A stretch of DNA of 18,000 nt from Chlamydiia bacterium (GTDB taxonomy: Bacteria > Chlamydiota > Chlamydiia > Chlamydiales > Parachlamydiaceae): positions 1 to 18,000 of the forward strand of contig JBBSJT010000045.1 in assembly GCA_038257035.1 (NCBI GenBank). Direction: 5' to 3'. Shown here piece by piece: positions 1-18,000 of the stretch. The notes below the pieces were generated by a model. The model did no database searches. It had not been told where the DNA came from and saw only the letters and a program-made list of their open reading frames with translations. Both the position numbers and the translations under genes were made by a program. The first letter of the stretch is position 1, and each line of letters starts with the position of its first letter.

Positions 1-543
1 ACCAGCAGGTGCTAGAATGGAATTAAAGACAAATTTTGGAAATTGAATAAAAAGAGCATCAGCAATCTTGCAGATAATTTTCCCAATTGGTGTAAGTACG
101 TTGTTGTAGGTCCACTTTGTAAAGTTCACAATTGCATTTCCAATTGCCGGAAGAATTTTTTGGAAAAGGGTTTGGACAACAGTCTTGATTGCGCGTCCAA
201 TAGGAGTTAGGATATTATTGTATGTCCAGATAGCAACATTTTTTAGTGTTCGACCGATAAGTTTTGGAAGGGTGATAAAAAATGATTTAATCAACTTATT
301 AATTTTCTTTCCAATGGGCAATAAAATATTTTCAAAAGACCATTTTGCTAATTTTGGTAGACCATAAAAAAGCGAATAATAGATCGTAACAGGAATAGAA
401 GATATGATAATTAAAGCAACATATCCTATTTTTTTTATGAGAGAACTTTCATTCCATGTTTGACCAAAAGTTTTTTTGTTATTATTAACTTTGAAAAATT
501 CCTGATTGTTAATATTTGAGGGATTATTATTTGTGACTTGCAT
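1..543 (-). CDS. Membrane-anchored protein with 19/38-aa amphipathic helical repeats (N-terminal part only; runs off the window edge)
   Basis: Manual translation from ATG at 543 gives 181 codons with no stop: MQVTNNNPSNINNQEFF...IGYVALIIISSIPVTIYYSLFYG (hydrophobic segment), then KWSFENILLPIGKKI, IWTYNNILTPIGRAI, KWTYNNVLTPIGKII. Missing from the ORF track because its stop lies outside the window. Confidence 0.85.
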   Translation of the reverse strand, partial: MQVTNNNPSNINNQEFFKVNNNKKTFGQTWNESSLIKKIGYVALIIISSIPVTIYYSLFYGLPKLAKWSFENILLPIGKKINKLIKSFFITLPKLIGRTLKNVAIWTYNNILTPIGRAIKTVVQTLFQKILPAIGNAIVNFTKWTYNNVLTPIGKIICKIADALFIQFPKFVFNSILAPAG

Positions 544-568
544 GGAAAATATCTTTTTTTAAAATTGG

Positions 569-1150
569 TTAAACGTATTTGAAGGTGTGGCTTACAGTGA
601 TGCTGTCACCATTTTTTATGCCATATGCTTGCAAAGTTAAATCTTCATTAAGATCAGATGATGGAGAATATTGAAAATTATATTTAGACTCCAAAAAGGG
701 TCGTGGTTGATCGTTTGGTGAATAGGTAGTATCTTGACCCAGCATTTGACAGCAGATTTCCATAATTTTTTTCATTTTTGTGTTTTCATCAACAATTAAA
801 ATTCCCCATTTTAAGCCCCCTCTACCATGACCTAAATTGATTTGAACTTTTTCAGCGTTCCCTTTTTCATCGATAAATAATTCTCCAACTCTTTGAATTG
901 TCTCTCTACAAAAAGGACACGGATTTCTATCATCTTTGTAAAAACTGGACCGTCCATCACTTTTCGCTTCAATTAAACAGACGTTATGGTATGTGTGTCC
1001 GCATGTCAATTGTCGTAAATGGCTTGAACTTTCTTCGCAAAGCAAAGGATCAAGGCAAATTGCACATTCTTGTTCTTTTAACGTGTTATAAATATTAATG
1101 GTTGGTAATGGTAATGGAAATGGTAGTTTAGATCCCTCAAAATTATTCAT
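569..1150 (-). CDS. RING-H2 zinc-finger protein with C-terminal ubiquitin-like domain; putative E3-ligase effector
   Basis: C29-x2-C32-x17-C50-x-H52-x2-H55-x2-C58-x19-C78-P-F-C81-R82 is a C3H2C3 RING-H2 pattern. The C-terminal VDENTKMKKIMEICCQMLG...LNEDLTLQAYGIKNGDSITV resembles a beta-grasp Ubl/SUMO-like domain. Confidence 0.85.
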   Translation of the reverse strand: MNNFEGSKLPFPLPLPTINIYNTLKEQECAICLDPLLCEESSSHLRQLTCGHTYHNVCLIEAKSDGRSSFYKDDRNPCPFCRETIQRVGELFIDEKGNAEKVQINLGHGRGGLKWGILIVDENTKMKKIMEICCQMLGQDTTYSPNDQPRPFLESKYNFQYSPSSDLNEDLTLQAYGIKNGDSITVSHTFKYV

Positions 1151-2552: not shown

Positions 2553-2604
2553 CCCGAGCTGCACATCCACAGAGTACATAAAGCAGAACACACGGTTATA
2601 CCGT

Positions 2605-2832
2605 TGAGGGAGCTTTTTTTACCGCGAAGAACGCGAAGAAGCGCAAGCTTCGCTGCGGGAAGAAGCGCGAAGAAGCGCGCTTTCGCGCGTGGTGGAAAGG
2701 TATGGTGCTAAAGTAAAAAGACTATAGATTTTTCTCCTTGTTCTTCCTCGCAGCATGAGCTACACTTTCTTCGCGCTTATTCCCGCGCTGCAGCGCGCTT
2801 CTTCGCGGTCTTCGCGGTAAAAAAATCCCTCA
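2605..2832. repeat. Long palindromic element, CGCGAAG type (copy 1); probably also a bidirectional terminator between convergent genes
   Basis: Arms 2614-2644 and 2795-2825 are complementary at 30/31 nt. Inner arms 2655-2674 and 2767-2786 match at 19/20. Outer TGAGGGA/TCCCTCA pair and T7/A7 tracts. GC-rich against an AT-rich background. Confidence 0.9.
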
Positions 2833-2838
2833 TAGTGG

Positions 2839-3873
2839 TCATTCTACAGGGATGAGGCTCTCTTTTAGGCCTTGCTTGTCCAGCTTGACCAACCAAATTT
2901 CATGATCCTGCCTTCCATAACTAATGTAGACAAATCGCTTTGTGGCAATAAATCCACATGGAAAAATGACTTTAACTGGATGCCAGTAGGGGGTATATTC
3001 CTTGCCTTCATAAAATCCTAATGAAATAATTGGTTTGTTGCTAATATTTGTAATTTCAAAGGGTGGTTCTTTATTAAAAGTGTAGGCACCCATAAAGTAA
3101 TGGGGGATTTTTTGTCCCTTGGAGTGAACCGTCGACATATTCATTGAACTGTGAAAAAATGCAAGGTACTCATCTCCATCAAGAATAGCGGGGGTACCGC
3201 CTCGAAGTTCGCCAAAATCCCAAGACACATTCGAATGTGTGCAACTTATGGTTGTTGCCTCATTGGAGCAAGGAATAGGATATAAAATTTTGTGTTCTTG
3301 CAAACTATAGGCCATTAAAAGATATCCATCATAATCAAATGGAACCCAATTTTTTTCTCTTCTATGTTTATTCTCACCTTCAAAATGCAAAATAGCGTCT
3401 GTGTTTCCAATTCCGATGGTTTCGTTATCAATAAAAATCTCTGTTATATACATCCTAAAACCCGAAGTGCACACCAATTCATCTCTGTTGTCGCTATAAA
3501 TAAGATAGAGTCTGTTTGCAACTTTAATCAATCTTGCATCCTCAGATTTTGCATTTTCGAAACCAAGGTCAATGATTTGGGGTTCATTTATGGGGTTAAA
3601 ATCAGCATCCAAGAAAATGAGCCCAATTAAGCTCTCCGCCGAAGAACAAAAGGAGTTAGTTTTTGAGTCTTCAGGAATTGTTCTAAAACTTAATAGAATT
3701 TTATTATCCCATTCTATGATAGAAGGATTAAAGGCGTGGGGGTATTCAGGTATCTGAAGTTGTTTTGTCTTTAGAACAAAGCTTGAGGCTTGTTCTTCCA
3801 GGTTTACTTCTGCAAAACCGTTATATGAATAAAAAAGTGAACTGAAAATAAAAGTGATGAGAAAAATATTCAT
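2839..3873 (-). CDS. Exported five-bladed beta-propeller glycoenzyme, GH130/GT91(Bmt)-like (paralogue 3)
   Basis: Signal-like N-terminus (MNIFLITFIFSSLFYSYNGFA). Motifs AFNPSI, EDARL, EKNWVPF, ELRGGTP, FFHS, HYFMGAY, VIFPCG, YGRQD. Confidence 0.7.
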   Translation of the reverse strand: MNIFLITFIFSSLFYSYNGFAEVNLEEQASSFVLKTKQLQIPEYPHAFNPSIIEWDNKILLSFRTIPEDSKTNSFCSSAESLIGLIFLDADFNPINEPQIIDLGFENAKSEDARLIKVANRLYLIYSDNRDELVCTSGFRMYITEIFIDNETIGIGNTDAILHFEGENKHRREKNWVPFDYDGYLLMAYSLQEHKILYPIPCSNEATTISCTHSNVSWDFGELRGGTPAILDGDEYLAFFHSSMNMSTVHSKGQKIPHYFMGAYTFNKEPPFEITNISNKPIISLGFYEGKEYTPYWHPVKVIFPCGFIATKRFVYISYGRQDHEIWLVKLDKQGLKESLIPVE

Positions 3874-3889
3874 GTTAACCTAAAAAAAA

Positions 3890-4963
3890 TTAATTCTGAC
3901 AATCTACCAAGCTATCAAGAAGTTGCTGTTTATCAATTTTGACAATCCACATTTCATGGTCTTGTCGACCGTAGGAGACATAAATAAATGGCTCTTCAAT
4001 AAGGATTCCGCAAGGAAAAACACACCTGACAGATTTCCAATAATGTTTGTAGTAAACACCCTTGTAAAAGCCTTTTCCAACGATGGGCCGAGGACTTATT
4101 TTATTGATTTTAAAAGGGGGGGTTGACGAAAAGGTGTAGGCACCCATAAAATAATGAGGGATACATTTTTTATTTGAGTAAACACTTAAAAGATCAATAG
4201 ATGAATGAAAAAATGAAATGTACTGATCACCATCAAGAACTGCAGGAGTTCCTCCTCTAAGTTCTCCAAATTCCCAATTTAACTTTGGCTCAGTACTTGC
4301 AATAGTTTCACATTTGTTAGTTTTGGGTAGATGCTGAAAAATCGTATGAGGAATCAAGCTGTATGCGAGCATCATGTTGCCATGATAATCAAAAGGAACC
4401 CAATTTTTTTCTCTCAAATAGGGGTTTGCCCCTTCAAATTGTTTTAAGCAATCCGTGTGTACAACGACAAATTGATCGTTTCTATAATCTATTTCTGAGG
4501 TATAAACGCGAAATCCTCCTTTACTGATGTAGTCCTCTTTGTTATCACTATAAACGAGGAAAAGTTTTTCGCCGATCACTATTAACCGTCCGTCTTCAGC
4601 TCTGGAAGGGACAATTGACAAAGGGTCTTGGGTATCAATGATTTGCGGTTTGGTTATTGGGTTAAAATCTTCATCAAGCAAAACAAACCCGATTTGAGAG
4701 TTAAAAGTTAAAAGTGGGCTTGGAATGATGCGAAAACTTAATATCAACATATCTTTGAAGCGGACAATTCCCGGATTAAAAGCATGTTTATATTCATCTA
4801 ATAGAATCCGTTTGGTGTCCATAATGTATGTTTGGCAATTATCCTCCAATTCAATTTCTTCTTGAGGCTTGTTTGACCAAAATAAAGTATTTAAAAAATT
4901 ATTTTCATGAGCAACAGCCACATCAAATATCGTAAGTAGCAAGAATAATATTCTGAATTGCAT
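3890..4963 (-). CDS. Exported five-bladed beta-propeller glycoenzyme, GH130/GT91(Bmt)-like (paralogue 2)
   Basis: Signal-like N-terminus ending AVA. Motifs AFNPGI, EDGRL, EKNWVPF, ELRGGTP, FFHS, HYFMGAY, VFPCG, YGRQD. Confidence 0.7.
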   Translation of the reverse strand: MQFRILFLLLTIFDVAVAHENNFLNTLFWSNKPQEEIELEDNCQTYIMDTKRILLDEYKHAFNPGIVRFKDMLILSFRIIPSPLLTFNSQIGFVLLDEDFNPITKPQIIDTQDPLSIVPSRAEDGRLIVIGEKLFLVYSDNKEDYISKGGFRVYTSEIDYRNDQFVVVHTDCLKQFEGANPYLREKNWVPFDYHGNMMLAYSLIPHTIFQHLPKTNKCETIASTEPKLNWEFGELRGGTPAVLDGDQYISFFHSSIDLLSVYSNKKCIPHYFMGAYTFSSTPPFKINKISPRPIVGKGFYKGVYYKHYWKSVRCVFPCGILIEEPFIYVSYGRQDHEMWIVKIDKQQLLDSLVDCQN

Positions 4964-4974
4964 TTAAAGCCCCT

Positions 4975-5979
4975 TTATAATCTGTCCAAACTCTTTAAAA
5001 GAGCCGCTCTATCCATAGTTACAATCCAAATCTCATGATCCTGTCTTCCATAGGCTACAAAGATGTGTTGATCATCAAAAATAAACCCACCAGGAAAAAC
5101 AACCCTTAGAGGTTTCCACGTTTTATGTGATGGACCATTATAGAAATTTTTTCCGATGATCGGTTTTTTACTGATCGATTTAATTGCATGGGGAGCATCT
5201 TTTTCAAAAGTGTATGCCCCCATGAAGTAGTGGGGAATTCTCTTTCCATCGGATTGCACTGTTTTCATCTCTTTTGCTGAATGAAAAAAAGAGAGATATT
5301 CATCCCCGACAAGAAATGCTTGTGAGCCACCCCTTAGTTCTCCATATTTCCATGGAGCTTTATTTACAGTTGAACCTTGAGTTTCACATCGATTTTCAAA
5401 TGCAATAGGTTTTAAAATTGTGTGTGGTTGAAGGGAATAGATTAACATTAATTGATCTTCATAAACAAAAGGTGTCCAATTTTTTTCATGACGACTTTTA
5501 TTTTCCTGATCAAAATTGTTAAGAACTTCAGGATTTTCAATGTAAAATCTTTTTCCATCAAATTCCATTTTTCCAATCAACATGCGTCTAAAGCCTTTTC
5601 TTGCTGAACCCAACATATCATTATAAACCATGAATAGCTCATCGCCGATAGTAATAATTCTTGGATCTTGCGCCATAGATTGGCCAGATATTTGATTTCT
5701 TATTTCGACAACGTAGGGTTTTGAGATTGGCTTAAACTTATTATCAAGTTCAATTAAACCTATTTGATTTGTCGTTTTAGAAAGGGGATCGCGTATTCTA
5801 AATACAAGCAAAATAGAATCCTGATAGCGCACAATTGATGGATTGAAAGCATCAGGATATTTTGGAATATGAATTTGCTTTGTATCTAAAATAAATGGAT
5901 CGGGATTTTCTTCCAAATCAATAACTGTTGAAAATAAAAAATTAAAAAATGACAAAAATAATAAAATTAAGTATTTCAA
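4975..5979 (-). CDS. Exported five-bladed beta-propeller glycoenzyme, GH130/GT91(Bmt)-like (paralogue 1)
   Basis: TTG start and signal-like N-terminus MKYLILLFLSFFNFLFS. Motifs AFNPSI, QDPRI, EKNWTPF, ELRGGSQ, FFHS, HYFMGAY, VVFPGG, YGRQD. Confidence 0.7.
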   Translation of the reverse strand: MKYLILLFLSFFNFLFSTVIDLEENPDPFILDTKQIHIPKYPDAFNPSIVRYQDSILLVFRIRDPLSKTTNQIGLIELDNKFKPISKPYVVEIRNQISGQSMAQDPRIITIGDELFMVYNDMLGSARKGFRRMLIGKMEFDGKRFYIENPEVLNNFDQENKSRHEKNWTPFVYEDQLMLIYSLQPHTILKPIAFENRCETQGSTVNKAPWKYGELRGGSQAFLVGDEYLSFFHSAKEMKTVQSDGKRIPHYFMGAYTFEKDAPHAIKSISKKPIIGKNFYNGPSHKTWKPLRVVFPGGFIFDDQHIFVAYGRQDHEIWIVTMDRAALLKSLDRL

Positions 5980-5996
5980 AGCTGTACCTAAAACCT

Positions 5997-6878
5997 TTAT
6001 TTAGCAAAATTTATTTTTTTAAATTCACTATCTGGCCAATATTCAAAAGGGAAGGCATTGTAAAGCTTCTCAAGATCGCAATCAAAAGGCGGTTCGCCGC
6101 CCATTTGCAAAGCTTCTTCAACGGATGTTGCGAATTTAAAATCAGGACGGTTTGTTCCAAGATAGTAGTCGATATATTTTAACATTGGTTCATTATCTGT
6201 CACTCGCAAATACCTTGCAGGAATCCCGAAAGCTTCTGCCAAAATAATGCCATGCAAAGAGCTTGAAATAACAAAAGCGCTATTTGTGATTTGTTCAATA
6301 ATTGTAAATAGCTCATCTGTTGGGTAGACAATTTTCATGAACTCATTTTTTGGAAATAATTTTTCTTCGCTGTAATGTGGGATCACGATGAAATCATGTT
6401 CAGGATATTTTTTCTTTTTAAATTCAGGAAAAAAATAAGGAACAAGCAGGGCTGGATCACCGTAAATTTCCGGACAGTTAATCCCGAAGGTTTCCATCAA
6501 AAATTGTCTTGAAAGAGGCCCTCTTATGGCTCGAACATCTAGTTCTGTAAAGTTATAATCTTTTTTATCCATGCGTTTTCCGTTTGTCCCAGTTCCCCAT
6601 ACAACATCATTTTGGTTTGAAAAAATAAGAATGGAGCCTATTGCCAGTAATTTTTTTTCATAACCAAACATCTTTTTTTTATAAACGCGAACCTCTTCTC
6701 CAACGATCCTCTCGACAAGTTTTAATGAAAGATAATCACCAAAATTTACCATGCGAGGTTGTTGCCAATAATAAAGCGGTAATCCTTGTTTTGTGAATGA
6801 AGTTGAGTAGCAAGGCGATAAACATAAAATTAACTCAAGAACTAAATAGAGGCTGATTATTTTATTTTTTAAAAGCAT
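5997..6878 (-). CDS. Polysaccharide pyruvyltransferase family protein (ExoV-like) with N-terminal hydrophobic signal/anchor
   Basis: Motifs NFGDYLS, LAIGSIL, VWGTG, AIRGPLS, GDPALL, IPHY, SSSLHGIILAEAFGIP, KYIDYY. Confidence 0.85.
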   Translation of the reverse strand: MLLKNKIISLYLVLELILCLSPCYSTSFTKQGLPLYYWQQPRMVNFGDYLSLKLVERIVGEEVRVYKKKMFGYEKKLLAIGSILIFSNQNDVVWGTGTNGKRMDKKDYNFTELDVRAIRGPLSRQFLMETFGINCPEIYGDPALLVPYFFPEFKKKKYPEHDFIVIPHYSEEKLFPKNEFMKIVYPTDELFTIIEQITNSAFVISSSLHGIILAEAFGIPARYLRVTDNEPMLKYIDYYLGTNRPDFKFATSVEEALQMGGEPPFDCDLEKLYNAFPFEYWPDSEFKKINFAK

Positions 6879-6945
6879 GTTTTCTCCGTAATTATTTTTT
6901 TAGAGCCAATTTTTGATACTATAAATTCATTATCAATTTATCAAG

Positions 6946-8385
6946 TTATTTTTTACTGTTTTTTGTTAAATACACCTTAAAAATGTAACTTGAGGCCATA
7001 GAATCAGATCTTGTATTGGTAAATGTCAAAGTACTTGCAATACCTCCCACAATGTATCCGATGAGTTCTCTTTTACATTTTAAAAGATCCAGTTTGATTA
7101 CACCGTTTTTATAGTCCGGCAATTTAACCGGCATAAATTTAGCTCCTGCACCAAAAAGAAGCTGGTTACCAGGATTTGATCCTGTAGATAAAATAACAGG
7201 GTATTCGGCATCCATTAAATATTGCTTAAATTTTTTATGTTTATCGATTCTGATGGTTGTAACTTGGTTAATAAAAGGGATATCTTCATCTTTCTGAAAA
7301 GTTCCATCTTGAAAGAAGCCATAGCTAAGACCACCTAATAAAATCGTATAAGATTTGCGGTTTTCATTTGAAAAGAGACAAATAGTAGGTGATGCATAAT
7401 TGTTCATACCTTGTTTGAATGTATCGGGATCTGATGGATTTGGCATGTATGCCTTTCCATTTTTCGTGATAAAAACAGGTACAGTCCAGATACCCCCAGC
7501 CTCGGTAAACACCCCCGATAAGGCAAGAAAAGATTGACAAGCGTCCCAATCTTCTTTAAGTACAATAGGAACGACGTTTAGGTCACGTCGGCGATAATTC
7601 GGATTTCTAGTTTCAGGTAGAGTTTCTTTCTTTTTAATAGTCAGCTTTTTAGTGTCTCCATCAATGATAAATCTGTGGATTTGTTCAAGATAAACTCCAT
7701 TGCTTGAATCGGTATAAGGGCCTTCAAAATTTTGTCCAAAAATAAGAAGTGTTAATCCATCGCTATTTTTTGTCATGTATCCTCCTGTTACTTGGAAGAT
7801 CGGGTCAAAAATTTGACGGATGTAATATTTTGCTTTTTTAGAATGTTTAGGCTCCATCACCCAGTCCATGAGTCCTGGAATGTCTATTGCTGTGAGGGCA
7901 TTTTTTGTGGAAAACGTTCCGTTTGCTGTATTAATCCCATAACCGCCTGTCATGTAAAGCGTTTTACCATCTTGGTATGATTGAGGACTTACAACAGATA
8001 ATGAATCGATTTGCTTTTGGCTAAGGCCGGAACCAGCATCTTTTAAAGATCTTGTGTAAACCTTTTTCTTTTTGGGATCCACTACATAAACTGTTGTATT
8101 TTGTTGTGATGGAGGAAAATTATCGGTTGCATCAAAACCATGAAGGCCATTTGTACGACCTGCTAATAAAAGCCACTTGCCATCATGAATGGCAGTAACT
8201 CCGGAATGTATGCCATTTGGCAAAGAAAAATCTGCCTCTTCAATATCGATGGAAAAAGGCAATTCACTTCCCGGATAAATAGGGCTTGTGGTTTCAGTTT
8301 GGTTAGGGTTGACGGCAGCAAGATTACAAAAGCTGACGACAGTAAAAAATGAGAACAAGGGATTAAGCTTATAAAAAAGCGACAT
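6946..8385 (-). CDS. Secreted protein of unknown function, probable kelch-like beta-propeller
   Basis: SD AGGAG before the ATG and a signal peptide ending LAA. Repeated hydrophobic-strand plus GG units (LLLAGR, LYMTGGYG, FQVTGG, ILLGG, YIVGG). Confidence 0.6.
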   Translation of the reverse strand: MSLFYKLNPLFSFFTVVSFCNLAAVNPNQTETTSPIYPGSELPFSIDIEEADFSLPNGIHSGVTAIHDGKWLLLAGRTNGLHGFDATDNFPPSQQNTTVYVVDPKKKKVYTRSLKDAGSGLSQKQIDSLSVVSPQSYQDGKTLYMTGGYGINTANGTFSTKNALTAIDIPGLMDWVMEPKHSKKAKYYIRQIFDPIFQVTGGYMTKNSDGLTLLIFGQNFEGPYTDSSNGVYLEQIHRFIIDGDTKKLTIKKKETLPETRNPNYRRRDLNVVPIVLKEDWDACQSFLALSGVFTEAGGIWTVPVFITKNGKAYMPNPSDPDTFKQGMNNYASPTICLFSNENRKSYTILLGGLSYGFFQDGTFQKDEDIPFINQVTTIRIDKHKKFKQYLMDAEYPVILSTGSNPGNQLLFGAGAKFMPVKLPDYKNGVIKLDLLKCKRELIGYIVGGIASTLTFTNTRSDSMASSYIFKVYLTKNSKK

Positions 8386-8479
8386 TTTTTCTCCTTTAAT
8401 AAAAAAGTGTTAAGTATTATTTCTATAAGGATATAGGATAAATAAAGCAAGCGATCTTAAAATGAAGTTGAGATAAAGT

Positions 8480-8833
8480 ATGTATGAGTCAAAAAATAAG
8501 AAACTGGCACCGACAAGGGTTTTTGCACGTCGATTTCTTCTAAATTTCATTCTGGGGACCCTCATACTGTTACTCTGTCTTTGGATGGGTATGTTCGGTT
8601 ATCATTACTATGAAAAAATGTCTTGGATTGATTCCTATGAAAATGCAGCCATGATTTTATCAGGAATGGGTCCGGTACAAGAACTAAAAACGAGTGGCGG
8701 CAAGATTTTTGCAGGGACATATGCCCTTTTTAGCGGTATTGTTTTTATTTTTTTTATGACCATCATTTTAGCCCCCATACTCCATCGCTTCTATCATAAG
8801 TTCCATCTCTCCAAAGACCAACCCAAAGACTAA
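8480..8833 (+). CDS. Small 2-TM membrane protein with a potassium-channel-like (KcsA/Ion_trans_2) pore region
   Basis: TM1, then GYHYYEKMSWIDSYENAAMILSGMGP (pore-helix and filter position), then TSGGKIFAGTYALFSG as TM2. Confidence 0.65.
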   Translation: MYESKNKKLAPTRVFARRFLLNFILGTLILLLCLWMGMFGYHYYEKMSWIDSYENAAMILSGMGPVQELKTSGGKIFAGTYALFSGIVFIFFMTIILAPILHRFYHKFHLSKDQPKD

Positions 8834-8854
8834 CGTTCAAAAGTAACTTTGTTC

Positions 8855-8898
8855 TTAACACCGAGACCACAGAAGAGAACTACAGAGAGGTATGAGAA
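8855..8898 (+). repeat. Solo arm of the CACAGAG/CACCGAG-type palindromic element
   Basis: TTAACACCGAGACCACAGAAG closely matches the reverse complement of 13357-13376 (TTAACACCGAGATCACAAAG). No partner arm nearby. Confidence 0.6.
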
Positions 8899-8951
8899 TT
8901 TACCGTTTCCACCCGAACCGCATCAATAATAATTTCCACCGTTTAAGTTTG

Positions 8952-9107
8952 CATTTTTTTGACCGCGAAGACCGCGAACAAAGACGCGAAGAAACGCGAA
9001 GAAGCGCACTGTCGTGCGAAAATTGAGGCTTTTTTTCTTATCGCGCTTTAGCGCGCTTCTTCGCGTTTCTTCGCGTCTTTCTTCGCGGTCTTCGCGGTGA
9101 AAAAATG
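8952..9107. repeat. Long palindromic element, CGCGAAG type (copy 2)
   Basis: Arms 8962-9007 and 9053-9098 are complementary at 45/46 nt and flanked by CAT7 / A6TG. Same terminal sequence as 2605-2832. Confidence 0.92.
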
Positions 9108-9170
9108 GAAAAAAAGAGGGTTGATAATTATATGGAATTTGGTTAAAAGGTGCTTAAACAGGAGCAAAAA

Positions 9171-9782
9171 ATGACCAATAAACCAAAAATTCTTGCTTTT
9201 GCAGGAGCTTTACGAAAAGATTCGCTGAACAAGAAGATGGTAAGGTTCGCAGCAAAAGGGGCGGAAGATGCAGGAGCCATTGTCACCTATATCGATTTAA
9301 AAGACTTTTCATTGCCCATTTATGATCAGGATCTGGAAGATGCGTCAGGTATCCCTGAAAATGCGATGAAACTTAAAAAATTATTTTTAGAAAATGATGG
9401 CTTCCTTATTGCATGTCCTGAATATAACAGCTCCATCACAGGTGTCTTAAAAAACGTTATAGATTGGGTTTCACGCCCGGCACCTGGTGAAAAAGCTTAT
9501 CTTTGCTGTTTTTTAAGTAAAGTCGTCCTCCTTATGAGTGCATCTCCAGGTAATTTAGGTGGGATAAGAGGGCTTGTACACGTAAGATCCATATTTGGAA
9601 ATATTAATAGCATTGTTTTACCAAATCAAAAATGCATTCCAAATGCAGACAAGGTTTTTGATGAAGCAGGAAAAATCAATGATCCAAAAATTGATAAAGA
9701 TGTGAGAGCTCTTGGGGCAGAACTTTGCACTTTTCTTCAAAAACTAAAGTCGGGATCAAACGATTTAGAGAATATAGGTTAA
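9171..9782 (+). CDS. NADPH-dependent FMN reductase (flavodoxin-like; ChrR/SsuE family)
   Basis: Motifs KILAFAGALRKDSLN, LPIYDQDLE, ACPEYNSSITGVLKNVIDWVSR, SASPGNLGG. AGGAG at 9160-9164 favours ATG 9171. Confidence 0.92.
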   Translation: MTNKPKILAFAGALRKDSLNKKMVRFAAKGAEDAGAIVTYIDLKDFSLPIYDQDLEDASGIPENAMKLKKLFLENDGFLIACPEYNSSITGVLKNVIDWVSRPAPGEKAYLCCFLSKVVLLMSASPGNLGGIRGLVHVRSIFGNINSIVLPNQKCIPNADKVFDEAGKINDPKIDKDVRALGAELCTFLQKLKSGSNDLENIG

Positions 9783-9869
9783 GTCTTTAATTGTTAGTTA
9801 TATAAAAATTTCATTTATTGTAATGTTAAATTGTTGTATATGGAAGTTTAAGACTATTAATGGAGGATT

Positions 9870-10301
9870 ATGCGCCAATTAAATAATTATTTTGCTCGTA
9901 TGGCATCTTGTGCTTTCATATTATCTTTTGGCCTTAATTCTTTAAGTGCCGAAGAAATAACCAAAGGTGGCCATCATGGCGGCGGTCATCATGGTAGTCA
10001 TCATGAACATCATGGTCATAATCATGGTCATCACGGACATCTTCATGGCGAACACCAAAGTGAACATCATAATCATCATCATAACTATCACGGTGAACAT
10101 CGTGGCTATTGGAAAGATGCCGACTACAACGTTAATGAACCATCCCTCTATTATCAGACCCCTCAAACTGTAGTCGTTCCGGGTTCCACAACTGCAACAC
10201 CTCAAAAACCTGTCAATTATTATTACACGCAACCTGCGATACAAACTACTACACCTCAAACACAAACAACTGTCCCATCATCAACCAGCACCCCAAAATA
10301 A
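9870..10301 (+). CDS. Secreted histidine-rich, Thr/Pro/Gln-rich low-complexity protein
   Basis: SD GGAGG and a signal peptide ending LSA-EE. 22 His in a 43-residue tract, followed by a T/P/Q-rich tail. Confidence 0.8.
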   Translation: MRQLNNYFARMASCAFILSFGLNSLSAEEITKGGHHGGGHHGSHHEHHGHNHGHHGHLHGEHQSEHHNHHHNYHGEHRGYWKDADYNVNEPSLYYQTPQTVVVPGSTTATPQKPVNYYYTQPAIQTTTPQTQTTVPSSTSTPK

Positions 10302-10329
10302 CACACAGTATCTAATATAGCATTTTTGA

Positions 10330-10434
10330 TTTTTTACCAGTGAGTCAGTGAGAAAGACATGAGATCAATGAGGGGTTGGAATTCATAGCCCCTCACTGAT
10401 CTCATGTCTTTCTCACTGACTCATTGGTAAAAAA
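10330..10434. repeat. Long palindromic element, CAGTGAG type; probably also a bidirectional terminator between convergent genes
   Basis: Arms 10330-10375 and 10389-10434 are complementary at 44/46 nt, with a 13-nt loop and T6/A7 ends. Confidence 0.92.
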
Positions 10435-10527
10435 ATATTATTGGTACAATTCAAAGAGTATTCTTAAATATCTTATCTTGCCTTTCTTTGCTTTTTCTCC
10501 GTGACTATCGAGGAAAAGGTGCAAATA

Positions 10528-11847
10528 TCAGAGTAGAGTACCCTGTAGGATGAAGTAGGAAATAGTAAAGTAAATGATCACACCCGTCACATCAACAAGC
10601 GTTGCAACAAAGGGCGCAGATGAGGTCGCAGGATCTAATCCCAAAGCCTTTAAAATGATCGGCAGCATAGAACCGGTAATTGTTCCCCAAAGCACAATTC
10701 CGACTAAGGTGACACCAACGGAAGTGGCAATAAGAGTTGATTCAAGACCATATATGTCTGAAAAATGTCCCCACACCGCAATGCGCAAAAAGCCGATGAA
10801 CCCAAGGACTAAACCCAAAAAGATTCCTGCATAGATTTCTCTTTGCATAATCTTCCACCAATCTTTAATTGTCACCTCTCCTAAAGCCAAAGCTCTAATA
10901 ATAAGGGATGAGGCTTGTGAACCTGAATTTCCACCGCTTGAAATAACGAGAGGCAAAAATAGGGTTAATACAACCGCTTTTTCAATTTCAACCTGATAAA
11001 AAGCCATAGCTGATGCAGTTAAGGTTTGACCAAGAAAAAGAACAGCCAGCCAACCCACGCGTTTTTGCATCAATTCAAAAAATGGGGTTGCCATATATGG
11101 AGCATCCAAGGCTTCACTACCCCCGATTTTTTGTATGTCTTCAGTAAATTCTTCTTCGACTACCATTAAAATATCATCGATTGTTACAATTCCTAAAAGA
11201 ACCCCTTTATCATCGATAACGGGAAGAGCATTACGATTATAGTTTTGGAATGCGTTACTTGCGACTTCCTGATCATCGGTAGCATACACCGAGATGACCT
11301 TATAATCAGAAAGCGTTGAGACCTTGGCTTCCGGCTGTGCAAAAAGAAAATCTTTTAGAAGAATGTCGTCTATCAAAACTCCTTGATTATCAATCACATA
11401 AAGAACCGAGATAGTTTCGCTGTAATGACCAAATTTTCTGACATGTTCCAATACATCAGAAACGGTCCAATTAAGTTTTATACTGATGTAATCGGTGGTC
11501 ATTAGACGGCCAACACTGTTTTCCGGGTAGCCTAAAAGTTGTAGTGTAACAACCCGTTCTGAGGGTGATAGTAATTGTAAAAGTTCTTTTAAAATTTTAC
11601 TTGGCAGCTCTTCTAAAAATGAAGTTCGATCATCCGGAGATAAATTATTTAATAGCTTGGCTGCATCTTCAACAGGCAAAGCGTCAAGGAACTTTTTTTG
11701 AAAGTGAAAGGGAAGGAATTCAAAAACAGTGGTGGCAGTATCGGGGGGTAAAGATTTATAAATTATTTGACGATCATCATCATTAGATTGTTCGATTAAT
11801 TCGACAATTTCAACAGCAGAAAAGTTTTTAAGATCTACATCGTACAT
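10528..11847 (-). CDS. mgtE: Magnesium transporter MgtE
   Basis: N-domain (PDDR), YPENSVGRLMT, CBS pair, and TM domain with GGNSGSQ and DPATSSAPFVATLVDVTG. Confidence 0.95.
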   Translation of the reverse strand: MYDVDLKNFSAVEIVELIEQSNDDDRQIIYKSLPPDTATTVFEFLPFHFQKKFLDALPVEDAAKLLNNLSPDDRTSFLEELPSKILKELLQLLSPSERVVTLQLLGYPENSVGRLMTTDYISIKLNWTVSDVLEHVRKFGHYSETISVLYVIDNQGVLIDDILLKDFLFAQPEAKVSTLSDYKVISVYATDDQEVASNAFQNYNRNALPVIDDKGVLLGIVTIDDILMVVEEEFTEDIQKIGGSEALDAPYMATPFFELMQKRVGWLAVLFLGQTLTASAMAFYQVEIEKAVVLTLFLPLVISSGGNSGSQASSLIIRALALGEVTIKDWWKIMQREIYAGIFLGLVLGFIGFLRIAVWGHFSDIYGLESTLIATSVGVTLVGIVLWGTITGSMLPIILKALGLDPATSSAPFVATLVDVTGVIIYFTISYFILQGTLL

Positions 11848-13391
11848 TTTAATAACATCTCGTTAATATGTTCCGCCTCTATTACCCATCCTCCGCCAAG
11901 GGCTTTGTATAGGTTTATCAAAGAGGAAAAGCTGTTAGCTTCCGTATCTGCAAGCAATAGTTGAGATTCAAATAATCTTCTTTCCGCATCCAACACATTC
12001 AAATAATCGCTTTGACCATTACTATATTGAAGAGTGGCAAGCTGCCTGTATCGCTCAAAAATTTTCACTTGTTTTGTTTGCTCAATAACAAGTTCTAAAT
12101 TCATTTTATGAGATATAAGAGCATCATTAACTTCTTTTAATGCATTTAATATAGTTTGGCAATAGATATATACCGTCTCAGATTTAACTGATTTTGCAAG
12201 CTCAAACTGTGAAATAAGTCTTCCGCCTGTAAAAATGGGCTGAAATAAATTTGCAGAAGTTGCCCATGTAACTGCATTTCCGGTAAATAAATTACACAGA
12301 TGTGAACTTTGATTTCCATACATTCCAGTTAGAGTGATATCTGGAAAAAACTCTGCCCTTGCCTCTCCGATCCTGTAATTTGCTGCGATAATGGCATCTT
12401 CAGCTCGTTGAATATCAGGTCTTTGCCAAAGAAGATCAGAGGGCAGGCCAACAGGAATATTTGGAGGCATGACTAGCGCATTCAAGATTTTACCTCTCGG
12501 AATAGAGGTTGGTGCCATTCCAACTAAAACACTGATCAGATTTTCTTGAACAGGAATTGTTATTTCAAGACGTTTGATGGCAATAATTGCCGTTTCTGTT
12601 TCAGATTGGGCTTGTTTATATTCAAGCTCCGAAGTAAATCCACTCTCAAACCTCAATTTTGCAATACGTTCTGATTCAAGCCTTGTTTTTAAGGTGTTTT
12701 TAGAGATCTCTAATTGTTTGTCCAACTTTCTTAAATTCACGTACGAATCGGCAATAGCAGATACCAATGTTAGTATTACCGTTCTTTTTACTTCAATTTG
12801 GGCAAGATAATCATAATAAGCCGCATCGGATCTATTTTTAATTTTACCCCAGATGTCAAGCTCATATGCTGCGCTAATAGTCGCAGAGTAAACATTAAAG
12901 CGCCTATATTCGGGAAGAAGGGGAGGAACTGTTGCAAGCGATAATTGTTGCCGCGTTTTGTTAAGCTCTCCTCCAACTTGCGGGAAAAGGTTGCTTGAAA
13001 CAACTCCTAGGATTGCTCGGTATTGGGCAACTCTTGCGATGGCAATTTTTATGTCATAATTGTTACCCAAAGCCGTGATGATTAAATCATCTAGCACCTC
13101 ATCGTGGAACTGCTCCCACCATTTGATGTTTGCTGTCTTACAAACAAATTCTTGTGGCGTCGCATTTTGTAACTCGACTCGATAATTATCGGGTATATCA
13201 ATCCTTGGCGGGCAATATTTCGGCGCCAAATTACATGATGAGAGGAGAGAAAGTGAGAGAAACAGAAGTTTGTTTATTATAACTTTTTTCTTTAACACAG
13301 AGGACACAGAGAAAAGAGAGAGAGGAAAATAAGTTTCTCTTATTTCTCTTCGCTGTCTTTGTGATCTCGGTGTTAAAAAAAAACTATTCAT
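11835..13391 (-). CDS. Outer-membrane efflux lipoprotein (OprM/NodT/TolC family); start uncertain
   Basis: Lipobox LLSSC-NLAP and motifs WWEQF, YELDIWG, GLPSDLLWQRPDI, FFPDITLTG, YLNVLDAER, LYKALGGGW. ATG 13391 overlaps the RND stop. An alternative GTG lies at 13298. The track start at 13463 is probably too long. Confidence 0.9.
   Translation of the reverse strand: MNSFFLTPRSQRQRREIRETYFPLSLFSVSSVLKKKVIINKLLFLSLSLLSSCNLAPKYCPPRIDIPDNYRVELQNATPQEFVCKTANIKWWEQFHDEVLDDLIITALGNNYDIKIAIARVAQYRAILGVVSSNLFPQVGGELNKTRQQLSLATVPPLLPEYRRFNVYSATISAAYELDIWGKIKNRSDAAYYDYLAQIEVKRTVILTLVSAIADSYVNLRKLDKQLEISKNTLKTRLESERIAKLRFESGFTSELEYKQAQSETETAIIAIKRLEITIPVQENLISVLVGMAPTSIPRGKILNALVMPPNIPVGLPSDLLWQRPDIQRAEDAIIAANYRIGEARAEFFPDITLTGMYGNQSSHLCNLFTGNAVTWATSANLFQPIFTGGRLISQFELAKSVKSETVYIYCQTILNALKEVNDALISHKMNLELVIEQTKQVKIFERYRQLATLQYSNGQSDYLNVLDAERRLFESQLLLADTEANSFSSLINLYKALGGGWVIEAEHINEMLLKCTM
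13291..13377. repeat. Palindromic element, CACAGAG type, lying in the 5' coding region of the OMF gene
   Basis: TTTAACACAGAGGACACAGAGAAA (13291-13314) pairs at 19/24 with 13354-13377. TTAA occurs at 13292-13295 and 13373-13376. Confidence 0.75.
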
Positions 13392-16300
13392 TTTTAGAAG
13401 CCTCTTTTTTAGTGAAGAGTTCACCAATGATTTTATAAAAAAGTGGCACAAAGAAGATGGCAAGAAAGGTAGCCGAAATCATCCCGCCTAAAACTCCCGT
13501 TCCAACAGAAATACGGCTTGCAGAACCAGCACCAGAGCTTAAAACAAGAGGGATCACACCAAAAATAAAAGTTAAAGAAGTCATGAGAATGGCACGGAAG
13601 CGCAATGTTGCCGCCTCAACTGCTGCATCGGCATACGATAATCCTTGGGCGTGCTTTTCTGATGCAAATTCCACGATTAATATGGCATTTTTCGCAGAAA
13701 GGGCAATTAAAGTGACAAGTCCGATTTGAAAATAGATATCATTGCTTAAATTGGCAACATAGATGGCAGCAAAGGCTCCAAAAATTCCAAATGGGACAGC
13801 CATTATAATAGATAACGGTGTTGCCCAATTTTCGTAAAGTGCAGCTAAAATCAAAAAGACCATGATTAGACCAAGTAGTAAAACTTTATTGGAAGAGCCT
13901 CCTGTTTTGCTTTCCTGATAACTCTCTCCACTAAATGAAAAACTCATGCCTTCAGGCAAAACTTCACTCGCAACTTCTTTTAACGCTTCCATAGCTTCTC
14001 CGGAGCTATAACCCGTGTTTGCATTCCCGGTAACTCTTGCGGCAGGAAACCCATTAAAGCGACTCACCAAGATGGGTCCCTTGACCATACGTATAGCCAC
14101 AAGGGACTTTAAAGGAATCATCACCCCTGTATCTGAACGTACGTAAATCTCTCCGATGTCTTCGGGTCGACTTCTATATTCAGGTTCAGCTTGCAGCATC
14201 ACCCTATATACTTTTCCGAATTTATTGAAACTATTTACATAAAGTGAGCCTAAAAGTACTTGAAGTGACTGATAAACATCATCGATTGGTACATTTAATG
14301 AAACGGCCTTAACACGATCAAGATCAATATAGAGCTGTTTTGCGTTTGTATCGATTGTTGTGTTGAGATTAATAAGTTCGGGTCTTGTAGAAGCTTTTGC
14401 AATGAATTGTTCGGTGATATTTTGCAAAGTGGATATATTGCCGGTACCTCGATTCTCAATCCAGAATTCAAAACCTCCAACCGTGCCTAAGCCCTGAATC
14501 GAAGGAGGCATAAATGGAAGTACAAGAGCATTGGGTAATTGCATAAATTTTGCGCCTAAATTTTTTAAAACATTGTCAGCTTGTAAAGCGGTTTTTGTAC
14601 GCTCAGACCAATCTTTTAAAATAATAAAGTAACTTCCCGCATTAGTTTTATTAATACCTTCAAGCAAACTGTAGCCGGTAATAGAAACCAAATCCTGAAC
14701 CGCAGGGTTTTGTTTTACAATCTCTTCGATCTGATTTGTAACTTTTGCAGTTCGCGACAGGCTTGCGCTATCCGGCAAAATGGCAACAGCCATCACATAG
14801 CCTTGATCTTCTACGGGCACAAAACTTGTTGGAATGGTGTAATTTAACAAGGCGATAAGTCCAAGAAGAAGCGCAAACAAAGACAGAGCAATTGCTGTCC
14901 TTGCAAGCAGCCACCTTACAAGTTTAATATAATAGGATGTGACATTATCAAGTCCACGATTAAACCAAAGTGCAAATCGTGAAGGGTTGTAGTTTTTTTT
15001 AATCAAAAATGTCGCAAGCGCCGGACTTAAAGTCAAAGCAACAATACCTGAAATAATAACCGAAATAACGATTGTGATGGCAAATTGTTTATAAAGTTGA
15101 CCTGCAATTCCTCCAAGAATGGTAACCGGCAAAAACACAGCTAAAAGAACAAAGACAATGGCAATTATTGGGCCCGTTACCTCTTCCATCGCTTTTTTTG
15201 CAGCATCGACTGGTGATAATCCATGTTCTCTGATATTGCGTTCCACGTTTTCTATGACAACGATCGCATCATCAACAACAATACCAATGGCAAGTACAAG
15301 TCCAAAAAGAGTGAGCGTGTTGACAGACATTCCAAGTAAGTACATTCCTGCAAAAGTTCCAATGATCGATACGACAAGAGCAATCACCGGAATAATGGTT
15401 GATCTAAGACTTTGCAAGAAGACAAAAACTACGAGAATAACAAGAAGAGTCGCTTCGATGATTGTATTCCTGACTTCATGAATGGAAGCATTCACAAATT
15501 TAGTGATATTATAGGGGATGGAATATTCAAGGCCTGCAGGAAACCTTTTTTCTAATTGAATCATCGTATTTTGTATCTGATCCGCAACATCCAAGGCATT
15601 GGCACCATACTGTTGATAAACTGCAATTAAAGTTGTCGCCCTGCCATTCAGCTCTCCTATCACATCATAACTTTGGGCACCAAGTTCTGCTCTTCCAACA
15701 TCTTTTAATAAAACTGTAGATCCATCAGGATTAGCCTTTAAAATAATCTGATCAAAGTCTTGAGGACTAATAAGCCTTCCTTGAGCAGTGACTGGTAAAG
15801 TGAGTTCAACAGGGGATTGATTGGGCTCTTGTCCAATCTGACCCACAGCATATTGAGAATTTTGCTGTCTGATGGCTTTTGCAATGTCTTCTGTTGTTAT
15901 TCCAAGTTGTGCCATGCGATCGGGTTTTAGCCAGATGCGCATGGAATATTCTTTTTCCCCAATCACATTGACATCGCTAACGCCTTTAATTCGTTTAAGC
16001 TCATCAACGATATTAATACTTGCATAGTTGCTTGTAAAAATTTCATTGTAACGGTCTGTTTCTGATTGAATAGCAATAATTAACAAGAAGGTAGGGGATT
16101 GTTTTTTGACCTGTAAACCTTGTCTTTGCACTTCAAGAGGAAGCTCTGCCATCACAAGATTAATTCTATTTTGAACATCGATTTGTGCTTTATCAATGTC
16201 TGTTCCAATCTCAAAGAAAACGTTTAATGTCAAAATGCCGGATGATGCACTTTGTGAATACATGTAAATCATGTTTTCAACGCCATTTATTTGCTGCTCT

Positions 16301-16497
16301 AAAGGTGCTGCGATTGTTTCTGCAATCGTTTCAGCACTTGCACCTGGGTAGGCTGTTGAAATCAGTATTTGCGGAGGGGTGATGCTTGGAAATTGCTCTA
16401 TTGGTAAATTTAATAAGCTGATCAGGCCGACCAAAGTAATGATGATCGAAATGACGCTTGCAAAAACTGGCCTGTCGATAAAGAATTTAGCAATCAT
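13384..16497 (-). CDS. RND multidrug efflux permease, HAE1 (AcrB/MexB-like)
   Basis: 1037 aa with motifs FFIDRPVFA, GIVVDDAIVVIENVER, SAKNAILIVEFA and RFRAILMTS; proton-relay residues intact. Confidence 0.96.
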   Translation of the reverse strand: MIAKFFIDRPVFASVISIIITLVGLISLLNLPIEQFPSITPPQILISTAYPGASAETIAETIAAPLEQQINGVENMIYMYSQSASSGILTLNVFFEIGTDIDKAQIDVQNRINLVMAELPLEVQRQGLQVKKQSPTFLLIIAIQSETDRYNEIFTSNYASINIVDELKRIKGVSDVNVIGEKEYSMRIWLKPDRMAQLGITTEDIAKAIRQQNSQYAVGQIGQEPNQSPVELTLPVTAQGRLISPQDFDQIILKANPDGSTVLLKDVGRAELGAQSYDVIGELNGRATTLIAVYQQYGANALDVADQIQNTMIQLEKRFPAGLEYSIPYNITKFVNASIHEVRNTIIEATLLVILVVFVFLQSLRSTIIPVIALVVSIIGTFAGMYLLGMSVNTLTLFGLVLAIGIVVDDAIVVIENVERNIREHGLSPVDAAKKAMEEVTGPIIAIVFVLLAVFLPVTILGGIAGQLYKQFAITIVISVIISGIVALTLSPALATFLIKKNYNPSRFALWFNRGLDNVTSYYIKLVRWLLARTAIALSLFALLLGLIALLNYTIPTSFVPVEDQGYVMAVAILPDSASLSRTAKVTNQIEEIVKQNPAVQDLVSITGYSLLEGINKTNAGSYFIILKDWSERTKTALQADNVLKNLGAKFMQLPNALVLPFMPPSIQGLGTVGGFEFWIENRGTGNISTLQNITEQFIAKASTRPELINLNTTIDTNAKQLYIDLDRVKAVSLNVPIDDVYQSLQVLLGSLYVNSFNKFGKVYRVMLQAEPEYRSRPEDIGEIYVRSDTGVMIPLKSLVAIRMVKGPILVSRFNGFPAARVTGNANTGYSSGEAMEALKEVASEVLPEGMSFSFSGESYQESKTGGSSNKVLLLGLIMVFLILAALYENWATPLSIIMAVPFGIFGAFAAIYVANLSNDIYFQIGLVTLIALSAKNAILIVEFASEKHAQGLSYADAAVEAATLRFRAILMTSLTFIFGVIPLVLSSGAGSASRISVGTGVLGGMISATFLAIFFVPLFYKIIGELFTKKEASKNE

Positions 16498-17677: not shown

Positions 17678-17702
17678 TATAAATTTTTTTAATAATTATT
17701 TT

Positions 17703-17917
17703 GGGGTCAGGCTTTACAGAATTACAGTTTCGTCAAGTATCAATACAGTCATTTCAGAGAAACTGTCATTCTGTCAATCCAGACCCCAATCTCTCATGGT
17801 TTTTTCGTTTTGTTTGGCTTAAAAAGGGTCTGTGGGGTCTGGATTGAAAATATGACAGTTTCTGTTCTTGAAGGTATAAAACTTGAACGTAACTGTCATA
17901 TTGTAAAGCCTGACCCC
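17703..17917. repeat. REP/MITE-like doublet: two inverted ~85-bp GGGGTC...GACCCC palindromes
   Basis: Unit A is 17703-17787 (arms complementary at 27/31 counting from 17701) and unit B is 17834-17917. B is an inverted, diverged copy of A, including the loop. Confidence 0.88.
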
Positions 17918-18000
17918 ATTGAATTTCTTGAACTCTTATTTGAATTTGCTGTTTGCATTTGTTATAATATTTGTTATATTAAGTTGATGATAAAGAACCA

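Follow-up and report, generated by a model that had tools for sequence, protein, structure and literature searches.

The first 18,000 nucleotides of contig C45 of a Chlamydiia bacterium from the Parachlamydiaceae (hereafter the window; assembly G000, GCA_038257035.1, 2.37 Mb in 210 contigs, 36% G+C, 95.8% complete) contain four long hairpins whose arms are arrays of tandem short words. We conclude with high confidence that these hairpins are gene-less members of a class of word-arm palindromes associated with genes of the GxxExxY family. On the evidence as a whole, they are probably non-autonomous copies of elements in which a GxxExxY gene stands between inverted arms, and the encoded nuclease would serve the gene-less copies in trans.

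All four hairpins, referred to here as the 2614, 8954, 10330 and 13291 elements, lie where a first-pass annotation of the window had placed them, and all are beyond chance. Each has two inverted arms of at least two tandem words of 8-12 nt, the first word starts with A(A/C)C, and none of the four encloses a gene. Three word families, CGCGAAG (2614 and 8954), CAGTGAG (10330) and CACAGAG (13291), cover them. The core of the 2614 element reads T7-ACCGCGAAG-AACGCGAAG ... CTTCGCGGTCTTCGCGG-T-A7 with local sub-hairpins; the repeat finder gave outer arms of 31 nt (97%, 30/31) and several inner arm pairs, and the outer module is also paired (ATACCGTTGAGGGAGC / TCCCTCATAGTGGT). The B-type arm of the 8954 element is ACCGCGAAG-ACCGCGAAC-AAAGACGCGAAG-AAACGCGAAG, and its arms measure 53 nt with 51 matches in the hairpin scan of the core, or 94 nt at 79% in the repeat finder over the whole element. 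The 10330 element reads GA-T6-ACCAGTGAG-TCAGTGAG-AAAGACATGAG-ATCAATGAG-loop-complement-A7-T, with 46-nt arms that are 96% complementary (44/46). The unit strings quoted in the annotation, and the AAAGAC spacer common to the 8954 and 10330 elements, read as it had written them. Its near-perfect arm matches were recovered for the 2614 and 10330 elements, while the 45/46 given for the 8954 element was not exactly reproduced, 51/53 being found instead. Single-stranded DNA folding against 200 dinucleotide shuffles per element gave z-scores of -12.2 (2614; -83.5 kcal/mol), -12.9 (8954) and -16.1 (10330), and -4.4 for the weak, decayed 13291 hairpin; for each of the four elements, 0/200 shuffles folded as well. 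A word-pair scan of the window returned the four elements and one chance match, nothing else, and an Rfam scan of the window gave 0 matching families.

The window hairpins belong to families dispersed over the whole genome. Hairpins with arms of at least 18 nt numbered 691 before and 453 after removal of overlaps, and the same scan of two Markov-shuffled genomes gave 8 and 1. Clustering yielded a few large families, with one group having word-built arms, and at least seven word families occur in the genome. Termini counted with simple sequence patterns numbered 181 for CGCGAAG (82 pairs, 76-647 nt apart), 110 for CAGGAT, 68 for CAGTGAG, 54 for AAGGAC, 34 for CGCAGAG, 22 for CGCAAAG and 11 for CACAGAG; the four hairpins are therefore members of dispersed families, as had been proposed. 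Under a simple composition model, CGCGAAG was observed 859 times against 92 expected, ACCGCGAAG 261 times against 5.3 and ACCAGTGAG 85 times against 9.4; CACAGAG by itself is unenriched (183 against 163). Arrays of three consecutive words (CRCRRAG x3) number 149.

The arm layout is a property of the family. The consensus of 61 CAGTGAG termini, GA-T6-ACCAGTGAG-gCAGTGAG-AAAGACATGAG-gtCAGTGAG, retains the layout described for the window hairpins. In every family of this genome a T-tract stands outside the first word, and outside the T-tract the families have in common an outer module, about 14-20 nt long, of roughly TATAnCnTyTTyGA. Two module types exist among CGCGAAG arms, and one element can combine both. 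In four families, the two arms of an element resemble each other more closely than arms taken from separate elements do (0.89 versus 0.71 for CAGGAT). The annotation had further supposed that units are homogenised within each element, and this part of its interpretation did not hold: the deviating units, among them ACATGAG in third place, hold fixed positions common to all copies of the family and to a gene-bearing locus of another genus (L028), and the arms of one element can be of two module types. Since the odd third unit is a fixed family position, it does not mark a failure of homogenisation within an element. The other parts, a dispersed gene-less family and a link to GxxExxY genes, stand.

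Only two GxxExxY genes were found in the assembly by profile search and tblastn, on contigs C7 and C17. The contig of the window has no PF13366 or TIGR04256 match, in agreement with the annotation, which had seen no such gene in the window and had suggested that similar arms flank GxxExxY genes in other bacteria. The two proteins score 138 (C7) and 141 bits against TIGR04256 (cut-off 35). The C7 gene is enclosed by CGCGAAG termini at C7:934 and 1580, 647 nt apart, whose 42-nt arms differ at one position, so that a copy flanking an open reading frame (ORF), as the annotation had anticipated, exists in the same genome and in the same word family as two of the window hairpins. The C17 gene has a decayed CGCAAAG-type arm upstream and a complete CGCAAAG hairpin directly downstream. 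Long terminus pairs enclose either a GxxExxY gene (C7) or an inserted insertion sequence (IS) of the IS3 family (C4), and nothing else.

The association extends well beyond this genome. GxxExxY is present in 46 of 60 genomes of the same family, with 1-41 matches per genome, many copies being broken. We analysed 73 gene matches at 72 chlamydial loci (L017-L088) and scored a gene as word-armed when its flanking inverted repeat scored at least 14 and contained a word repeated at 7-13 nt. This was the case for 44/73, which are not independent events since 12 of the 73 are near-identical copies in a single genome (G057). Among 317 control genes of 300-520 nt in the present genome, five have such an inverted repeat and one, a RAYT gene (for the REP-associated tyrosine transposase, where REP stands for repetitive extragenic palindrome), is of word type. 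In a set of 80 loci from about twenty phylum-level groups, among them Planctomycetota, Acidobacteriota, Chloroflexota, Bacteroidota, Verrucomicrobiota, Spirochaetota, Proteobacteria and two archaeal bins, word-type inverted repeats occur at 42 of the 78 analysable loci, and any inverted repeat scoring at least 14 at 50/78. The suggested link is borne out by these counts, and the gene-plus-arms relatives point to a widespread type of mobile element.

Each word family of the window has gene-bearing counterparts: C7, L073 and L074 for CGCGAAG; L028, with the same ACATGAG third unit, for CAGTGAG; and L019, L022, L026, L027, L030, L066, L069 and L081 for CACAGAG. At chlamydial gene loci, AA or AC precedes the C of the first word in 56/70 arms, and the preceding bases of 108 cross-phylum arms are AC in 52, GC in 29 and AA in 6. 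A T-tract is found at 19/70 chlamydial and 17/108 cross-phylum arms and is thus no general feature. More than three triple-word arrays occur in 36/46 gene-holding versus 2/14 gene-lacking related genomes (Fisher p = 2.7e-5, overstated because relatives are not independent). Arrays exceed genes by up to about 100:1; G043, for example, has 344 arrays and 3 gene matches.

The GxxExxY product is a predicted PD-(D/E)XK nuclease, its modelled fold resembling those of lambda exonuclease and Cas4. G32, E37, Y40, D76, E86, K88, Q100, N117 and F118 are invariant in 55 aligned sequences, and Y104 is nearly so; we take these residues to be the E...D...ExK...QxxxY set of RecB-type PD-(D/E)XK nucleases. Since the catalytic residues are invariant, the activity, predicted to be that of a nuclease, seems to be needed. 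In fold, the AlphaFold model (mean predicted local distance difference test score, pLDDT, 92) comes closest, though weakly, to lambda exonuclease, RecE, the nuclease domains of AddAB/AdnAB and Cas4 (Foldseek E 1e-3 to 1e-2, template modelling score 0.4-0.5). PADLOC gave weak Cas4 profile matches for one of the two proteins, and a sequence search of solved structures with the GxxExxY protein returned 0 matches. A homodimer prediction for the C7 protein scored 0.00, which is no evidence in either direction. As another candidate nuclease, the PDDEXK_2/Rpn type (PF12784) was sought in the genome, with 0 matches.

Word type is mirrored in the protein clades. A tree of 67 proteins, from which fragments below 100 aa and one duplicate locus had been dropped, contains a CAGGAT/AACGAT/AATGAT clade (20 rows, support 99), a CGCGAAG clade (3 rows, support 95), a CACAGAG/CGCAGAG/CAGTGAG clade (16 rows, support 91) and a CGCAAAG/CACAAAG/CGCGGAG clade (28 rows, support 86). 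Word labels require 25 changes on the tree, against 46.6 in shuffles, and 0/200 shuffles were as low.

The elements turn over between related genomes. In a search of 21 genomes including this one, the CGCGAAG terminus pattern was present in two, with 178 matches here and 6 in one genome from a different genus, whereas two genomes of the same genus had 0. At most sites the intergenic DNA within the genus is too diverged to align (genes 67-72% identical), so that empty sites could not be resolved to the base. Only two sites could be used, since the relatives' genes overlap there, and both are unoccupied in G002, one of them also in G001. At the site of the 2614 element, the G002 orthologues of the flanking genes overlap and thus leave no spacer, while the gap in the window is 286 nt. 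Of the orthologous comparison proposed in the annotation, the unoccupied sites were therefore found and the target duplications were not. Metagenome contigs L169 and L170, with genes about 90% identical to those of the window, have a nest of CACGAAG-type arms in the gap of the 8954 element and a 55-nt CAGGAT-type palindrome in the gap of the 10330 element. Relatives at about 90% identity also occur among contigs of two freshwater metagenomes. L169 carries AACACAAAGAC at an outer position that matches a possible decayed arm (8857..8890) outside the 8954 element, where the regular-expression scan gave no flag.

The second usable site is the junction of the genes for AcrB and the outer-membrane efflux protein (OEP), whose overlap is likewise present in G002. 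There the junction reads ATGAATAG followed by AAAGAAG with no insert, and the OEP of G001 has a short signal peptide and no insert. In the window, ATGAATAG is followed by 90 nt (a T9 run, a decayed CACAGAG-type palindrome and GTGTT) and then AAAGAAAAAAG. The 90-nt insert keeps the frame and adds 30 codons after OEP codon 2. It either forms a 30-residue N-terminal insert ahead of the lipoprotein signal peptide or is bypassed by a restart at an internal GTG; two in-frame GTGs lie at about 13300-13315, either of which restores the lipoprotein signal peptide, and a restart would leave most of the element as intergenic spacer. No direct repeat surrounds the insert at this junction. An A-rich host sequence stands where the A-tract of the family normally does, which hints at microhomology in this single case.

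Direct repeats are likewise missing at the ends of 21/23 CAGTGAG, 8/9 CGCAAAG, 9/10 CGCAGAG and 19/27 CAGGAT copies, and the 4-nt repeats at 7/27 CAGGAT copies are the TCGA of the palindromic outer module. The absence of target-site duplication stays soft since the exact ends are unsettled; metagenome contigs with other copies of the 10330 type lose the match at 10323-10330 and at 10436. A TA duplication at the ends found no support in the direct-repeat check. An empty 'shell' of T-tract, A-tract and outer module was also considered as the target; 153 T5+A5+ sites exist, and since only 3 have GA...TC context, free shells were essentially not found. Metagenome contigs show multi-copy depth at the elements and joints that connect different copies within one family, and no clean joint removing an element was seen in the contigs compared.

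We consider that the full element comprises a small GxxExxY gene with an inverted arm on either side. An arm consists of 2-5 tandem words, which are 8-12 nt long and follow the type C-R-N-N-R-A-G or N-A-N-G-A-T, and its first word usually starts with A(A/C)C. Each nuclease clade may recognise its own word array and cut at or near the arms, and copies could then be made or homogenised through repair or fold-back synthesis. The nuclease would act in trans on gene-less copies, as RAYT does for its REPINs (REP doublets forming hairpins), and copies would be retained through tolerance of hairpins that lie downstream of genes and of the occasional in-frame insert. Propagation of the hairpins in trans by the nuclease itself, with clade-specific word recognition, is in our estimate about an even chance.

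Several observations weigh against this explanation. The match between clades and words is predicted by recognition but equally by plain co-inheritance of gene and arms, and CACAGAG is dispersed through its clade, its 8 rows requiring 8 changes. For five of the seven word families (CAGTGAG, CAGGAT, CGCAGAG, AAGGAC and CACAGAG), the 95.8%-complete assembly contains neither a cognate gene nor a remnant of one; tblastn of the assembly with the 67 proteins for broken cognates of these orphan families returned only the two known loci. It should be considered here that, of 52 unpaired CAGGAT termini, 44 are no more than 260 nt from a contig end, so that some sequence is unassembled; the CAGGAT family is a major reason for the fragmentation of the assembly and may conceal sequence. 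The automatic word-arm scoring fails for 29/73 chlamydial and 36/78 cross-phylum genes, several of which show weaker arms by eye, and two gene-lacking genomes still hold 27 and 18 arrays. In G057, 12 near-identical AATGAT-armed GxxExxY cassettes (L049-L060) lie inside a conserved unit, for which both of the unrelated 15-nt terminal inverted repeats (TCCTGACTTGTGCCA) were found in 9/12 cases, about 716 bp apart; the left flank mostly ends in T, the right flank mostly opens with a run of A, and no duplication was seen. In G057, the gene was thus spread as a passenger. Finally, the sole PF05635 (four-helix bundle) gene of the assembly (L201), on a short, AT-rich contig (C166), lies between inverted AATTCCAA word arms, and the arms may thus be a platform that hosts different cargo.

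These points feed the main rival explanation, in which the palindrome is itself mobile or self-propagating independently of GxxExxY, and the gene is a selfish passenger in hairpin loops, like the four-helix-bundle gene. Its routes of spread would be host replication and repair (fold-back synthesis or template switching at hairpins) or some other enzyme. The G057 cassettes, spread within a unit with different terminal repeats, the five families without a cognate gene and the PF05635 gene all fit this explanation, and so does the IS3-family element in the centre of an AAGGAC palindrome, which suggests that loops are landing places. However, passengers would not be expected to follow word type by protein clade, and the flanking of GxxExxY genes (44/73 versus 1/317) is too specific. 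Moreover, arrays are rare in 12/14 gene-lacking genomes, and the invariant catalytic residues point to a needed activity. We therefore regard spread by other means, with the gene as a passenger, as rather unlikely, and favour service in trans by the GxxExxY nuclease.

The genome holds a second class of palindromes, and a further explanation would assign the window hairpins to it, as REP/REPIN-type elements served by the Y1 (RAYT-like) transposases. Y1_Tnp gave 9 matches at 7 loci; repeats of more than 10 copies flank six of these on both sides and the C48 locus on one, and word-arm copies share with REP elements the bias toward gene 3' ends. At C29, a textbook RAYT gene lies between REP doublets. 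However, the repeats flanking the seven loci belong to non-word families (clusters 3, 5, 7, 10, 11 and part of 1), several with GTAG. No word-type arm adjoins any of the seven Y1 loci, and the consensus termini of the word families contain no GTAG or CGTC tag. The word-type families thus form a separate class, and service by the Y1 enzymes seems very improbable. Since each Y1 locus has its own palindrome family, at least five distinct REP/RAYT-type systems occur in this one 2.4-Mb chlamydial genome.

We give equally little credence to the explanation that the hairpins serve the host, for example as terminators, mRNA stabilisers or regulatory RNAs, and are kept under selection at each locus. 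The stems are very stable, and 135/353 placed hairpins lie between convergent genes and 45/353 between divergent ones, against 255/1727 and 290/1727 of all genome gaps (all by crude ORF calls). However, the stem has the T-tract on its 5' side and the A-tract on its 3' side whichever strand is read, opposite to the order in an intrinsic terminator, so that this specific reading was rejected; the Rfam scan gave no match, close relatives lack the elements or have others in their place, and one copy lies within a coding region.

If the nuclease explanation is correct, its scope could be larger than this genome. We place slightly below even the full proposal that GxxExxY proteins are the enzymes of an undescribed, phylum-spanning class of mobile DNA, in which a Cas4/lambda-exonuclease-like nuclease of about 125 aa would read clade-specific word arrays and propagate its own cassette together with hundreds of gene-less palindromes without target duplication. 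Such a class would add a third way in which dispersed bacterial repeats arise, next to IS-derived miniature inverted-repeat transposable elements (MITEs) and REPIN/RAYT, and would supply a natural collection of small nucleases whose short-word specificity can be swapped. Clades that read different words would further provide a compact system for the way in which a minimal nuclease acquires a new short-sequence specificity. GxxExxY is a large family without a known function, and the partnership with word palindromes provides a first candidate substrate and a role open to testing. The roughly 450 long hairpins of this 2.4-Mb genome break up assemblies, occupy the gaps that follow genes and turn over between 90%-identical strains, and hairpin repeats can add 30 codons to a gene. 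The coexistence of Y1/REP systems and the word-arm class makes this genome a good place to compare two solutions to a selfish strategy.

Coordinates of the features are collected below, with several others noted in the course of the analysis. The IS3-family element has a two-ORF transposase and its own inverted ends. An inverted-repeat cluster upstream of the efflux operon (TGGGGTCAGGCTTTACAG...GACCCCA; cluster 8, 6 members genome-wide) is not word-built and has weak matches in G002. A 193-aa ORF matches the RING finger weakly (E about 5e-6, slightly short of the Pfam cut-off), and a eukaryote-like domain of this type, if present, would be in keeping with an amoeba symbiont. Beside a polysaccharide pyruvyl transferase gene lie three paralogues of glycoside hydrolase family 130 (mannoside phosphorylase-like) in tandem. 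On C73, near-pure G runs face C runs at a contig end, which looks like a sequencing or assembly artefact.

Table 1 Positions of the window hairpins, their gene-bearing counterparts and other features of the window and assembly.
Feature	Sequence	Position	Strand	Remarks
Gene-less CGCGAAG-family palindrome (2614 element)	window	2598..2841	.	core 2614-2825; between convergent genes
Gene-less CGCGAAG-family palindrome, four-word 'B-type' arms (8954 element)	window	8929..9131	.	core 8954-9105
Gene-less CAGTGAG-family palindrome (10330 element)	window	10324..10437	.	arms 10330-10434; between convergent genes
Decayed CACAGAG-family copy, 90 nt (13291 element)	window	13294..13383	.	hairpin 13291-13377; in frame with OEP gene
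Possible decayed single arm of an older CACCGAG/CACAGAG-type element, AACACCGAGACCACAGAAGAGAACTACAGAGAGG	window	8857..8890	+	by eye, low confidence
OEP gene	window	11835-13391	minus	start codon overlaps AcrB stop (ATGAATAG)
AcrB gene	window	13384-16497	minus	stop overlaps OEP start
GxxExxY gene, 135 aa	C7	1100-1507		between CGCGAAG termini
GxxExxY gene	C17	14838-15212		beside CGCAAAG arms
PF05635 gene (L201)	C166	~460-890		between AATTCCAA arms
IS3-family insertion sequence	C4	32343-33821		in centre of AAGGAC-family palindrome
Y1 (RAYT-like) locus	C29	9017-9466
Y1 (RAYT-like) locus	C119	206-720
Y1 (RAYT-like) locus	C105	2265-2717
Y1 (RAYT-like) locus	C7	10560-10960
Y1 (RAYT-like) locus	C25	9976-10340
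Y1 (RAYT-like) locus	C48	13864-14310
Y1 (RAYT-like) locus	C68	12090-12620
193-aa ORF, weak RING-finger matches	window	569-1150	minus
Three glycoside hydrolase family 130 paralogues	window	2839-5979	minus
Inverted-repeat cluster	window	17702-17918
G runs facing C runs	C73	11781-11899		contig end

A literature search outside subscription journals and supplements found no published description of GxxExxY-linked word-arm palindromes. One published mention of GxxExxY is a Cas4-like call adjoining a reverse transcriptase. Compared with the Cas4/lambda exonuclease/RecB family, GxxExxY proteins share the fold neighbourhood and the E...D...ExK...QxxxY motif set; however, they are short (about 125 aa) and have no evident cysteines for an Fe-S cluster, and their genes stand without a CRISPR or recombination-gene context.

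Partial likenesses exist to several groups of palindromic repeats and enclosed ORFs. Rickettsia palindromic elements (RPEs) are palindromic repeats that lie in frame inside protein-coding genes of an intracellular bacterium, and the 90-nt copy in the OEP gene can be likened to them by description; RPEs are not known to have an associated gene or word-built arms. Classical PF05635/S23p ORFs lie in intervening sequences of 23S rRNA genes, which are excised from the RNA by RNase III. The AATTCCAA case resembles these in that a small ORF is enclosed by inverted arms; however, GxxExxY is a different protein family, and a single PF05635 case was seen here.

MITEs with terminal inverted repeats (TIRs) include Correia/CREE of Neisseria, RUP and the cyanobacterial Nezha. 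Like these, word-arm elements are short, non-autonomous, bounded by inverted repeats and dispersed in intergenic DNA, and they can nest. Unlike TIR-type MITEs, word-arm copies show no target-site duplication, although their exact ends are unsettled. No DDE or IS parent with word-family ends was found in the genome, where the largest protein family has at most 4 copies.

The closest parallel is to the REPIN-RAYT systems ('REPtrons'). Word-arm palindromes share with them many gene-less copies (more than 100 arrays per gene at most), one or few small nuclease genes flanked by the same repeats, a separate repeat type for each enzyme lineage, and intergenic copies with a 3'-end bias. GTAG REPs are reported in the PVC (Planctomycetes-Verrucomicrobia-Chlamydiae) group, with a conserved GTAG/CGTC tag as a feature (PMC3733652). 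Unlike in REPIN-RAYT systems, the word-arm enzyme has a predicted PD-(D/E)XK rather than an HUH/Y1 fold, the arms are tandem 8-12-nt words without the GTAG/CGTC tag, and the elements are single long hairpins of 76-647 nt rather than doublets of 20-40-nt REPs. The enzyme fold, the word-built arms and the missing duplication set this class apart from both REPIN-RAYT and TIR-type MITEs.

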